Of a DNA stretch of 64,000 nt, positions 31,923 through 34,662 are shown piece by piece. Position 1 is the first letter of the stretch; each line of letters starts with the position of its first letter. The stretch is from the UHGV virus genome UHGV-0287696. One strand, written 5' to 3'. The notes under the pieces are model-generated. The model did no database searches, had not been told where the DNA came from, and was given only the letters and a program-made list of their open reading frames with translations. This stretch comes from a virus. The position numbers were made by a program, and so were the translations under genes.

Positions 31923-32470
31923 TCATCGTCTCCTTTAATCAACCCTAATTCGATTAACAGTTCAAAATCGATATGACGGAATCTTGTGTCGAAGTCCGAT
32001 TCCCAATCGATACGGATACCCTGGCATTCTTCTGGCGTTAGCTCAGGAAAAATCACGCTATTAAATTTCTCCCGCTCATCGTAAAACCCATCAATCGGTG
32101 AGTTCGGGTTACGTGTTGCGAAGATAGTAATGCCGGGGAAGGACAATGCCAACACAGTGATAGATTCTGCGCTGGGTTCGCTTAAAGAGCGGCGTAGAAA
32201 CGCAATTTTGTGACGTGGGAAATCCAATACCCGTTCTTCAAACCCTGGGTTACGTTTTTCAATTTCCGCGACCGACAGGTCAGTAAGTTCGGTGCAGTAC
32301 ATTGGGATGATTACAGTCACACCGTGACGTATCAGCAAGCGTTTTACGTCATCGGTAAAATCTTCACCGTTAATCACCACATAACAACCGAATAGCTTAC
32401 TGTTTTCCAGAAACTTATCCAGAAGTCGAATTCTACGCTTCGTAATATTGTTGATCAGAATTGGTTTCAT
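31898..32470 (-). CDS. hypothetical protein co-operonic with the radical SAM enzymes
   Basis: 190 aa; start overlaps the 3' end of the radical SAM gene by 38 nt. Confidence 0.6.
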   Translation of the reverse strand: MKPILINNITKRRIRLLDKFLENSKLFGCYVVINGEDFTDDVKRLLIRHGVTVIIPMYCTELTDLSVAEIEKRNPGFEERVLDFPRHKIAFLRRSLSEPSAESITVLALSFPGITIFATRNPNSPIDGFYDEREKFNSVIFPELTPEECQGIRIDWESDFDTRFRHIDFELLIELGLIKGDDECLLLVKA

Positions 32471-33755
32471 CTTTGGCTTCTCTTAATAATTTTTCCTTTT
32501 GGGCACGTTCACGAACACAGCGTGGGCAATAACACATGCTCGTGTCGTGGAACGCTTTTGCTGACGTCGTACCCATCTTCTGTTTCCAGTATTCCGCCAC
32601 CATCAGTTTCGCTGTCGTCCAGCCACACTGACGTCGTTCAGCGTGATACGCTTTACGGTCTTCTAACGTTCCTTCCCCGTTCTCGTAAGAAGCCGCCGCG
32701 CAGCTACCACAAGCGTGTTTCATCGGACAACCTAAACAGGTCTCTGGGTAGTTGGTATATTGCGTTTGAATCTCTTCTAACAATTTACCGTTGTCCAGAC
32801 TGACGAATTCCCGACCTACCAACTCAAACACCGCAGAACGCGACGTTACCGTTGACATAAAGCGGTTACAGCCAAAGATCTTACGGTCAAACCCTAAGCA
32901 CGTCATGTGCGTTAACGTCCCACAGAACGGACGTAAGCGTTCTGGGTTCAACCGTACGGTGTCATTATACAGTAACTGGTCACGCCAGTTCGGTTCCCAA
33001 ATCGTATCGAAATCCAACCCTTCTGGAATGATGTGCGATAAGATATTACGTGGGTTGGTGTGTAATCCTTTCTCAACCCAGTAATCTATCACATCCATCA
33101 TCTGTAAAGCGATTGACGTCGCCATGCTACGCGGCATAACGTCTTCGAAAGTTACGTTTCCAGAAATTGTCCCACCGCCAGTAATGTCAATTAATGACTT
33201 CATCCCCGCAGCATAGAACGGCAGCGTTTCTAACGTAAAGGTTGCTTTTACGCCGAGCTCTGCAATGCCAACCTCTTTTAAGTAGTTATAGCCACGTACT
33301 GCGGCTTCGTAAGAACCCTGGCGTGTTGTTGTGAAGATACGATAACGGTCATGGGATTCAGGTAAGCCGTCAATCGAAACCCCAACTGAAAGTTTATCTT
33401 TCCAACGTTCTACGATCTCACGGTTCAACGGACGATCTAACAGCGTTCCGTTCGTGGAGATACTAAACATAAACGGTCGGTTGTGTTCTTTACACAACTG
33501 CTCAGCGGTTTCAAACGCAGCCAGCAGCAGTTTAGGCTGCATGAACGGCTCACCACCGATAATGTCGATAATAACTTCAACATTCGGTTCGTTTTTATCA
33601 CGTTCAAAACAGGCGTGTAAGAAATCAACAATATCCGCCGCTTTGTTGTTACGCGGGTACTTACGTTCGTAACAATATTCGCAGTCCAGGTTACACGAAA
33701 GGTTGGTTACGATCTGATACGTTAACTGCTTAGGGAATTCATTTACTTGACTCAT
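32433..33755 (-). CDS. radical SAM enzyme with C-terminal SPASM/twitch-like Cys cluster
   Basis: 440 aa; N-terminal CNLDCEYC (CxxxCxxC) 4Fe-4S/AdoMet motif and GGEPF glycine-rich motif; C-terminal CLGCPMKHACGSCAAA cluster typical of auxiliary Fe-S clusters in peptide-modifying radical SAM enzymes and anaerobic sulfatase maturases. Confidence 0.85.
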   Translation of the reverse strand: MSQVNEFPKQLTYQIVTNLSCNLDCEYCYERKYPRNNKAADIVDFLHACFERDKNEPNVEVIIDIIGGEPFMQPKLLLAAFETAEQLCKEHNRPFMFSISTNGTLLDRPLNREIVERWKDKLSVGVSIDGLPESHDRYRIFTTTRQGSYEAAVRGYNYLKEVGIAELGVKATFTLETLPFYAAGMKSLIDITGGGTISGNVTFEDVMPRSMATSIALQMMDVIDYWVEKGLHTNPRNILSHIIPEGLDFDTIWEPNWRDQLLYNDTVRLNPERLRPFCGTLTHMTCLGFDRKIFGCNRFMSTVTSRSAVFELVGREFVSLDNGKLLEEIQTQYTNYPETCLGCPMKHACGSCAAASYENGEGTLEDRKAYHAERRQCGWTTAKLMVAEYWKQKMGTTSAKAFHDTSMCYCPRCVRERAQKEKLLREAKDETNSDQQYYEA

Positions 33756-34662
33756 TTGCCGCCCCTCTATTACGCCCTGCCATCACTACGCGACGAATAT
33801 ATTCGTACGCCTCTACACCGATAGAGAAGGCCAGTTGGTTACATCCCGATTCCAGAACGTTAGGTGCATTCTGGAGTTGGTGCTCACCACCGTCTGCATT
33901 AATCCAAAGACTTTCGCTGCAAACGTTACACCCTTCTTCAAACACTTTACTTACTGTAAAGCCGCATTCACGACTATTTACTACATTTAGTCGTTCAATG
34001 TTGTCCTGAACCTGATAGTAGCCGTAAATAAAGTTCATGACGTGGTCGGGCGATAAAGGTTTTGGCATTTTCGCATCTAAGAGTAACGTCATTGCACGGA
34101 AACCGTAATGGTAAATCGCGCTGTGCAGCTGAATAATATCTTCGTGCCAGCGTTTGTCCCCTAAACGGTCCCGCGTCAGGACACCCCAAGTCTGGACATT
34201 ATCCAGCTCGTAGATCGTTTCCAGTGCTTCGTAACAGCCTTCGTCAATAAAGCGCATAAACGGGCGCTCAGACGACTTAAACCCATCGATGCTAACGTAG
34301 ACATTGTCAAACTGTTTTAGCAACGGGAGATGCGATTTACGCATCTTTAAGCCATTGGTATACAACTGGTGTTTGAGTTCTGGACGAATCACTTTTAATT
34401 CGTCAACAAACGCCTCAATTTTACGGGTTGCCAGTAATGGCTCACCACCCGTCCACTGAATTTCGGTAATGGTTGGATTAGCTTCCAGCGCTTCCAAAAT
34501 TCGCTCACGTTGAAACTCTCGCGGAGAATCTTCACGATTCATGTAATAGGCTCCACCGCAGAAGCTACAGTCCAGGTTACACTTGGACGTAGCGACTACG
34601 GACAATACGGTGGGTTTATCGTATAAACGATTCGATAACCTTGGTTCTGCATTGGTTGTCAT
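33739..34662 (-). CDS. radical SAM enzyme (second, paralogous) with C-terminal Cys cluster
   Basis: 307 aa; CNLDCSFC (CxxxCxxC), GGEPLL; C-terminal CGF...GCNVCSE...GC; stop overlaps the downstream radical SAM start by 17 nt. Confidence 0.85.
   Translation of the reverse strand: MTTNAEPRLSNRLYDKPTVLSVVATSKCNLDCSFCGGAYYMNREDSPREFQRERILEALEANPTITEIQWTGGEPLLATRKIEAFVDELKVIRPELKHQLYTNGLKMRKSHLPLLKQFDNVYVSIDGFKSSERPFMRFIDEGCYEALETIYELDNVQTWGVLTRDRLGDKRWHEDIIQLHSAIYHYGFRAMTLLLDAKMPKPLSPDHVMNFIYGYYQVQDNIERLNVVNSRECGFTVSKVFEEGCNVCSESLWINADGGEHQLQNAPNVLESGCNQLAFSIGVEAYEYIRRVVMAGRNRGAANESSK

Follow-up and report, generated by a model that had tools for sequence, protein, structure and literature searches.

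Radical S-adenosylmethionine (rSAM) enzymes that mature peptides are known for small secreted natural products, and the rSAM genes of phages are usually dismissed as metabolic morons. Here, we analysed two adjacent rSAM genes found in a stretch of 64,000 nucleotides (nt) of the virus genome UHGV-0287696, which we call the window. They code for proteins of 440 and 307 amino acid residues (aa), hereafter the large and the small enzyme. Upstream of them, three genes code for small proteins with tracts of regularly spaced Cys residues, and the gene for a protein of 295 aa that we call p299 sits between the Cys-tract and the rSAM genes (Table 1). From comparative analyses, we favour with some reserve the view that this module matures the tips of tail fibres, the rSAM pair being its catalytic part. 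That the Cys tracts are the substrates and that these genes make up such a module is, in our estimate, reasonably probable.

Among the described systems, the CXXX-repeat system resembles this locus in that a SPASM rSAM enzyme adjoins Cys-repeat proteins of period 4. It was defined in silico and comprises a target (TIGR04114), an rSAM enzyme (TIGR04115), a 90-aa partner (TIGR04116) and paralogous targets (TIGR04117). Our literature search found no paper on this system, nor on a link between rSAM enzymes and tail fibres. HxsB and HxsC (TIGR03978 and TIGR03977) provide a precedent for the pairing of enzymes, as they are a SPASM and a small non-SPASM rSAM enzyme found beside a target with short-period repeats. 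The best profile and structural matches of both phage enzymes are CteB (5wgg), the SCIFF maturase, and anSME (4k36). CteB has an N-terminal recognition element (RRE) for peptides made by ribosomes and modified after translation (RiPPs), and its Aux I cluster leaves a coordination site open, while anSME generates formylglycine in sulfatases, on a different motif. Lastly, the characterised family that scores best with the large enzyme is PapB of the PapB/PapA system (the ranthipeptide freyrasin), a SPASM enzyme with a repeating Cys motif as its target, on which it repeatedly installs small thioether rings. These thioethers join Cys to Asp; the enzyme holds the thiol of its substrate at an auxiliary cluster and is able to work leaderless at C-termini (PMC10470005, PMC12715619). 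It has an RRE, and a deltaRRE-PapB construct was described (PMC12715619).

Two tandem radical SAM enzymes

The region under study is ~73% identical in DNA sequence to the genomes of Salmonella phage SPN3US and related phages of the genus Seoulvirus (phiKZ-like jumbo phages) and 100% identical to a 225-kb IMG/VR contig (L007). The window is thus from an SPN3US-like jumbo phage. The original prediction had described two tandem rSAM genes, and both open reading frames (ORFs) are indeed present and overlap by 17 nt, with the ATG of the downstream, 440-aa gene at 33755 and the TGA of the upstream gene ending at 33739. A Shine-Dalgarno-like GAGGGG is found ~6 nt 5' of the ATG of the 440-aa gene, and GGAG 9 nt 5' of that of the 307-aa gene. 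The geometry of the overlap suggests that the translation of the pair is coupled. In other jumbo phages, the two genes overlap by 4-11 nt or are separated by a 10-nt gap, and in a Campylobacter prophage they overlap by 1 nt in the reverse order.

Both enzymes harbour the expected signatures, CNLDCEYC and GGEPF in the large one, CNLDCSFC and GGEPL in the small one, and the CxxxCxxC and GGE motifs are invariant in our alignments of large (A1) and small (A3) enzymes. The Pfam Radical_SAM family (PF04055) was matched with 57 bits (E 3e-15) by the 440-aa protein and with 53 bits (E 6e-14) by the 307-aa protein; as both scores exceed the gathering cutoff of 29.5, the matches are not due to chance. 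The two proteins are distant paralogues, with 25% identity across their N-terminal 150 residues.

Alignment A1 comprises 32 homologues of the large enzyme, with identities from 85% down to 27%. The Cys residues of the rSAM cluster, C21, C25 and C28, are invariant, and eight auxiliary Cys residues (C278, C286, C296, C340, C343, C349, C352 and C377) are invariant or at least 90% conserved. SPASM enzymes are recognised by a 7-Cys motif, C-x9-15-G-x4-C...C-x2-C-x5-C-x3-C...C, that ligates two auxiliary [4Fe-4S] clusters. The large enzyme harbours this motif with the spacing variant C-x2-C-x5-C-x2-C, and residues 340-352 read CLGCPMKHACGSC. Based on these features, we assign it to the SPASM enzymes, with two auxiliary clusters predicted to be bound by Cys ligands only. 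A loss of auxiliary ligands had been named beforehand as the outcome that would speak against the original prediction, and the ligands turned out to be conserved. The large enzymes of the jumbo-phage clade also have an extra CxCxxC tail (C408-x-C410-xx-C413) that is missing in their prophage relatives. It might bind another metal or cluster, or mimic the substrate.

The A1 profile matched CteB with an E value of 1e-36 over the whole rSAM and SPASM regions, with the Cys motif aligned, and anSME with an E value of 2e-18. Residue 19 of the large enzyme aligns with residue 105 of CteB, and the phage protein starts at the rSAM core; from this start, it is devoid of an N-terminal RRE. When compared with NCBIfam models, the large enzyme scored 116.8 bits with PapB (NF047865, cutoff 340), 114.7 bits in a full-length alignment with TIGR04115 (cutoff 350) and 59.2 bits with the anaerobic sulfatase maturase model TIGR03942 (cutoff 349). 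For the small enzyme, the scores were 41.3 bits with PapB and 29.5 bits with TIGR03942. Membership of the large enzyme in the TIGR04115, PapB, SCIFF, QhpD or anSME families was rejected, all scores, like those with every other named family, being below the cutoffs.

The small enzyme has C28, C32 and C35 as its rSAM Cys residues in addition to GGEP, and its core is similar to those of CteB and anSME. The only Cys residues conserved after this core are C245, C248 and C274, which flank a predicted beta-hairpin; the 7-Cys SPASM motif is absent. Twitch domains are short beta-hairpin domains at the C-terminus that ligate one auxiliary cluster, and the C-terminal part of the small enzyme may be a truncated auxiliary domain of this type, with three putative ligands. 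Its short extension with few Cys residues after the rSAM core invites comparison with the twitch-domain enzymes SkfB (6efn), MoaA and BtrN; SkfB is the best sequence match of the small enzyme in the PDB (E 3e-6). The two enzymes thus differ in their C-terminal Cys clusters, with eight auxiliary Cys residues in the large and three in the small one, in keeping with the sparser cluster that had been noticed in the latter.

We also considered nucleoside- and cofactor-type identities for the small enzyme. Its scores were 39 bits for viperin (cutoff 180), 35.5 bits for QueE (cutoff 260) and 43.8 bits for MoaA (cutoff 284), with matches to the generic rSAM core only, and these identities were rejected. 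In the structural comparison, peptide maturases came out on top, ahead of viperin, QueE and MoaA. Both the hidden Markov model scores and the structural neighbours thus show that QueE and viperin are not the closest homologues, and they point to a class of rSAM enzymes that modify peptides or proteins.

A third rSAM enzyme, a 303-aa paralogue of the small one, is encoded in two close relatives of the window's phage (L008 5575-6486 and L021 5576-6487), the large enzymes of which are 93% identical to that of the window. Its gene is inserted between the Cys-tract genes A and B.

Cys-tract proteins as presumed substrates

The three proteins with Cys tracts, A, B and C, share the same organisation. 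Each starts with an N-terminal helix of sequence MAIS(V/L)KN(V/I)RDR, followed by a junction motif, NAxxLxGQ....Y, and then by the tract, which ends 3-4 residues before the stop codon and contains 21, 20 and 4 Cys residues in A, B and C, respectively. The Cys residues are spaced by 4, occasionally 3 residues. In protein A, the MAISVKNVRDR helix precedes a CGGSCSWTCS sequence, after which (C-x-x-x)n units run to the C-terminus. In protein B, the fibre-junction motif, KATNNADLFGGQ..HYDC, comes just before the tract. Protein C is a short paralogue with CNGGCSWSCSGSC as its 4-Cys sequence, and its orthologues have 68-72 aa.

In all of the related jumbo-phage loci (at least 16), the Cys-tract genes are found one to three genes upstream of the rSAM genes, with a conserved number of Cys residues. 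Comparison of 17 sets of orthologues showed that every Cys of the tracts is invariant, the x positions drifting among Ser, Thr, Gly, Ala and Asn. The consensus of the tract unit, established from 672 CXXX and 137 CXX units, is C-[S/T]-G-[S/G/T], with Ser or Thr after the Cys in 75% of cases. The tract is C-terminal without exception in the 45 distinct proteins of this clade, with 3-7 residues left after it. Proteins rich in Cys and Ser that are presumed substrates are thus encoded just upstream of the enzymes, consistent with the proposal made from the window that the enzymes act on many Cys or Ser positions.

The nature of the modification must be considered in light of these tracts. An anSME-like activity would convert Cys or Ser residues of the tracts to formylglycine or other oxidised residues without making thioethers, and the resulting aldehydes might then react further. 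The number of auxiliary Cys residues in the large enzyme, eight, is as in anSME. Against such an activity, the score of the large enzyme with TIGR03942 is about half of that with PapB and far below the cutoff, the family profile is much closer to CteB than to anSME, and the tracts are devoid of the sulfatase motif C/S-x-P/A-x-R. We therefore regard oxidation of this type as improbable.

The module in other phages

Outside of jumbo phages, the nearest homologues of the large enzyme carry bacterial names, but their genes are within prophages. Their genetic environments revealed a module of four parts, namely a fibre with a Cys tract at its C-terminus, a protein resembling p299, and one small and one large rSAM enzyme. 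A lambda-like prophage of Deferribacter abyssi (L003) has, in this order, genes for gpJ, a fibre-like protein of 302 aa (HxH repeats and a C-terminal tract of 29 Cys residues), a p299-like protein, the small rSAM enzyme and the large one. In a P2-like prophage of Campylobacter pinnipediorum (L004), the genes code for baseplate J, a P2 gpI-like protein, the fibre, a 250-aa protein, the large and the small rSAM enzymes, and the sheath. The tail fibre matches PF12571 with 139 bits, and its C-terminal end is GCNGCSGSCSGSCSSGC (also given as ...GCNGCSGSCSGSCSSGCTACSGCSGSCSG...). The same four parts were found in varying order in seven other viral and metagenome contigs (L023, L027, L029, L030, L032, L034 and L089).

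Over their N-terminal and central parts, the Cys-tailed proteins are matched by tail-fibre PHROGs or Pfam families, and over their tracts by phrog_6085; those of L024, L026, L033 and L034 have tail-fibre PHROG matches in addition to phrog_6085. In these other phages, the tract forms the C-terminal end of tail-fibre proteins of 250-570 aa. The two features by which we sought to recognise a tail-fibre module, namely tracts fused to recognised fibre domains and tail genes on the flanks, are thus both present.

Altogether, the co-occurrence of rSAM enzymes with Cys tracts is near-universal across ~80 viral loci and two enzyme clades. This bears on whether the enzymes act on the tracts at all. They might modify another fibre residue, a cofactor or a nucleoside, in which case the tracts would be structural elements that bind metals or form disulfides. 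The weak N-terminal matches of the small enzyme to the MoaA, viperin and QueE models are in line with such a role, and so is a contig from a metagenome-assembled genome (L087 5264-8281), in which a p299-like protein and a large rSAM enzyme are encoded beside a T7-tail-fibre-like protein and no Cys tract is obvious. Either this contig departs from the module or its target is a different one. Nevertheless, the matches in question are to the generic rSAM core and far below the cutoffs, the best structural matches are peptide maturases, and the near-universal association with the tracts also argues against a target elsewhere. We thus hold it to be very unlikely.

A variation on the theme was found in contig L088, where a 508-aa fibre-like protein (1866-3392) ends with GGCSDCSDCSDYCSDDHC, a Cys/Asp repeat reminiscent of the Cys-Asp motifs of PapA. 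A related rSAM gene directly follows (L088 3398-4576), and a second pair of fibre and rSAM genes is found downstream.

With a p299 profile, 46 relatives were collected from 1.84 billion representative proteins, all of them stand-alone proteins of 230-320 aa; fusions with informative domains were sought among these 46 representatives and none was found. We rejected the idea that p299 is a long version of the TIGR04116 partner (hhalign probability 0.2). It may be a fibre-specific chaperone or a substrate adaptor, a proposal made solely because its gene occupies the position of the tail-fibre chaperone genes of P2-like and lambda-like phages.

The tail-fibre operon

Based on gene organisation, the rSAM pair of the window is part of a tail-fibre operon. 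The rSAM unit and the fibre genes have the same orientation, and no terminator-like site was found on the minus strand between the hairpin that closes the unit and position 38500. The operon was assigned to the tail-fibre region because of its homologue of SPN3US gp168 and its synteny with SPN3US, in which the genes for gp163 (large rSAM), gp164 (small rSAM), gp165 and gp166 follow those for gp167-gp170. The gene of the gp167 homologue is immediately upstream of the Cys-tract genes. SPN3US gp168, a tail protein, resembles phiKZ gp131, which is found at the baseplate periphery and fibres (PMC5105663). All of gp167-gp170 were detected in SPN3US virions by mass spectrometry (MS) as non-head proteins, among which gp167 is abundant (PMC5694885 Suppl. 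Table 1). This tail-fibre setting had been left out of the original prediction, as had the C-terminal CXXX tracts as likely substrates and p299 as a third component.

A classical RiPP cluster carried by the phage as a moron would offer another explanation for these genes. In that case, the three small proteins would be precursors with ~50-aa leaders and Cys-rich cores, which the rSAM enzymes would turn into a sacti- or ranthipeptide. This peptide, for instance a bacteriocin, a signal or a metal binder, would be set free at lysis rather than being part of the particle. The layout of the small proteins, three paralogues, is precursor-like, the enzymes are of the SPASM maturase type, and gp166 is missing from the SPN3US virion proteome. 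Nevertheless, family searches with the operon proteins revealed neither a protease nor an exporter nor an immunity protein, and no RRE (PqqD-like) was found in either enzyme or p299. Moreover, the putative leader bears the fibre-junction motif NAxxLxGQ...Y, phrog_6085 tracts elsewhere terminate full-size tail-fibre proteins, and the genes are within a tail-fibre operon in every lineage examined. A free peptide product is thus unlikely, although it comes first among the alternatives that we considered, ahead of anSME-like oxidation and then of a substrate other than the tracts.

Comparison with known systems

As in TIGR04115-type loci, the rSAM genes of the window adjoin CXXX-repeat targets, the three Cys-tract genes, and protein B matches the TIGR04114 target repeat with 20.4 bits at a cutoff of 20. 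In contrast with the CXXX-repeat system, the window has a second, small rSAM enzyme, and it has p299 instead of the 90-aa TIGR04116-type partner; no TIGR04116-like ORF of ~90 aa is present at the locus. Furthermore, the tract is at the extreme C-terminus in the window's clade, whereas it is often N-terminal or internal in TIGR04115-type targets.

True TIGR04115 members, with scores of 353-472 bits, were identified in six contigs (L037, L042, L045, L052, L054 and L056). These viral relatives are 24-28% identical to the large enzyme. Their loci adjoin Cys-repeat proteins and harbour neither a second rSAM enzyme nor p299; a ~100-aa partner is encoded instead, one of which matches TIGR04116 weakly. 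In L037, L052, L054 and L056, the TIGR04115 genes are found within phage baseplate, tail-fibre and lysis regions. Judging from these sequence comparisons, the large enzyme represents a sister clade of TIGR04115, and the window's system is a distinct variant. It may be that the orphan 'CXXX repeat peptide modification system' of bacteria is in general a module of prophage tails.

PapB differs from the large phage enzyme by its RRE. Moreover, the phage tracts have no regular Asp acceptor, unlike PapA, the x positions being Ser, Thr, Gly or Asn, and PapA is a short secreted peptide in contrast with the fibre-type proteins found here. With respect to its other relatives, the large enzyme resembles anSME in its eight auxiliary Cys residues and, unlike CteB, starts at the rSAM core. 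The Hxs pair has a similar organisation. The large enzyme scored 75 bits with HxsB and the small one 39 bits with HxsC, far below the cutoffs of 370 and 268, respectively; the target repeat is HXS in that system and CXXX here, and the context in the window is a phage tail. No Hxs models beyond HxsB and HxsC were found among the NCBIfam matches of nine operon proteins, in which HxsA and HxsD were not specifically searched for.

Proposed maturation of fibre tips

Given that the nearest characterised relatives of the phage enzymes are PapB and CteB, we propose that the tracts acquire thioethers, to which we give slightly less than an even chance. In this scheme, late in infection, when the genes are expressed, the large enzyme would bind the C-terminal tract directly or through p299. 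The 5'-deoxyadenosyl radical would abstract a hydrogen atom from a residue of the tract, and the thiolate of a neighbouring Cys would be joined to that carbon. By repetition along the tract, a ladder of small thioether rings would form, similar to what PapB makes from the Cys/Asp motifs in PapA. The small enzyme would act in a complex with the large one and introduce a second link or type of modification, or take care of a subset of the sites. This maturation would take place in the reducing cytoplasm and yield either a rod or knob at the tip of the fibre, stapled covalently and resistant to reduction, or a clamp for assembly. Because disulfides cannot form in the reducing cytoplasm where fibres assemble, enzymatic thioethers would serve as irreversible staples. 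We infer that the tracts are the substrates, that the enzymes form a heteromer and that the product is located in the virion.

Two proteins of 686 aa (L033 8131-10191) and 668 aa (P0109) represent fusions of the small and large rSAM enzymes in one chain. The existence of such natural fusions indicates that the two enzymes work together. The twin enzymes had been taken to suggest either two distinct chemistries or a heteromeric maturase; the fusions favour the physical cooperation implied by the latter and do not discriminate between the two.

Several observations weigh against the proposed maturation of fibre tips. Firstly, the C-terminal Cys triad has been lost from the small domain of both fusion proteins. 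Secondly, L024 and L026 encode the large enzyme, p299 and a Cys-tailed fibre, and the small enzyme is absent; as these loci carry only the large enzyme, it is the core of the system and the small enzyme a non-obligate accessory. Thirdly, the large enzyme is so far below the PapB and TIGR04115 cutoffs that the chemistry is not transferable by family membership. Fourthly, neither an RRE nor a PqqD-like or chaperone fold could be recognised in p299, and no Cys tract is found among the five called genes inspected around the rSAM gene of L087. Lastly, gp163-gp166 were not detected in SPN3US virions by MS (PMC5694885 Suppl. Table 1). Given the non-detection of gp166, the small Cys proteins may be absent from the mature virion. 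The MS data are nevertheless a weak test: annotation is lacking for two of the three Cys-tract genes, and a database search would not match peptides that are cross-linked.

The annotation 'radical SAM' in SPN3US-type phages dates from the deposition of the SPN3US record. The assignment of these genes to a module for the maturation of tail-fibre Cys repeats, with a twin enzyme and a new partner, appears to be undescribed. More generally, and tentatively, in many tailed phages, among them jumbo, P2-like and lambda-like ones, the distal end of the fibre might be built from a (C-S/T-G-x)n tract turned by dedicated rSAM enzymes of the phage into a thioether ladder, and the orphan CXXX-repeat systems might be prophage modules for tail-fibre maturation. 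If so, a structural protein of virions would for the first time be found to undergo a radical modification of the RiPP type, with covalent stapling in the reducing cytoplasm. This would add to virion assembly a new chemistry, comparable to the isopeptide cross-links of the HK97 capsid and performed by radical enzymes, and it would give a biological role to the orphan in-silico family TIGR04114-04117. It would also reveal a new determinant of fibre stability or host recognition, of relevance to phage therapy and engineered receptor-binding proteins. The tract itself would represent a simple, leaderless, repetitive C-terminal tag of potential use in protein stapling. As a genetic system and a virion proteome exist for SPN3US, the proposal is directly testable in this phage.

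Other features of the locus

Table 1. Features of the rSAM unit and its surroundings in the window, from the fibre genes to the end of the unit
Feature	Position	Strand	Remarks
Fibre/baseplate-periphery protein, 1727 aa	38042..43225	minus	SPN3US gp168 homologue by synteny
Coiled-coil virion structural protein, 401 aa	36802..38007	minus	gp167 homologue; phrog_2163 E 9e-104
Cys-tract protein A, 131 aa, 21 Cys	36339..36734	minus	phrog_6085 E 1.6e-40; presumed substrate
Cys-tract protein B, 132 aa, 20 Cys	35930..36328	minus	phrog_6085 E 4.7e-38; presumed substrate
Cys-tract protein C, 68 aa, 4 Cys	35721..35927	minus	GTG start 35927; phrog_6085 E 2.5e-24
p299, 295 aa	34684..35571	minus	ATG 35571; phrog_8030; SPN3US gp165 homologue
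Small radical SAM enzyme, 307 aa	33739..34662	minus	SPN3US gp164 homologue
Large radical SAM/SPASM enzyme, 440 aa	32433..33755	minus	SPN3US gp163 homologue
190-aa protein	31898..32470	minus	phrog_7988; only in jumbo-phage clade
DUF4376 protein, 223 aa	31251..31922	minus	PF14301 E 5e-11; phrog_8169; last gene of unit
Bidirectional terminator-like hairpin	31197..31227		closes minus-strand unit

Two more genes follow the rSAM pair. The first one, coding for the 190-aa protein, shares 38 nt with the 3' end of the large rSAM gene, and its product could be a further component of the module. The DUF4376 protein encoded by the second one shows weak similarity to the tail fibre phrog_1807. A scan for sigma-70 promoters yielded fewer matches than in shuffled sequence; phiKZ-like phages have their own RNA polymerases. 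No tRNA genes were found in the 64-kb window.

In the SPN3US record (NC_027402, L001), only one of the three Cys-tract genes is annotated, that of gp166, with a shortened start. The conserved ORFs of the other two are at L001 12167-12373 and 12804-13196. Similarly, gp164 (L001 10321-11235) is annotated as a protein of 264 aa, and a 304-aa ORF matches the 307-aa protein of the window end to end.

Directly upstream of the rSAM unit, three giant minus-strand ORFs (38042-43225, 43320-47525 and 47536-51858, coding for 1727, 1401 and 1440 aa) occupy the positions of gp168, gp169 and gp170. The latter were grouped in the SPN3US study as paralogue family C of tail proteins.

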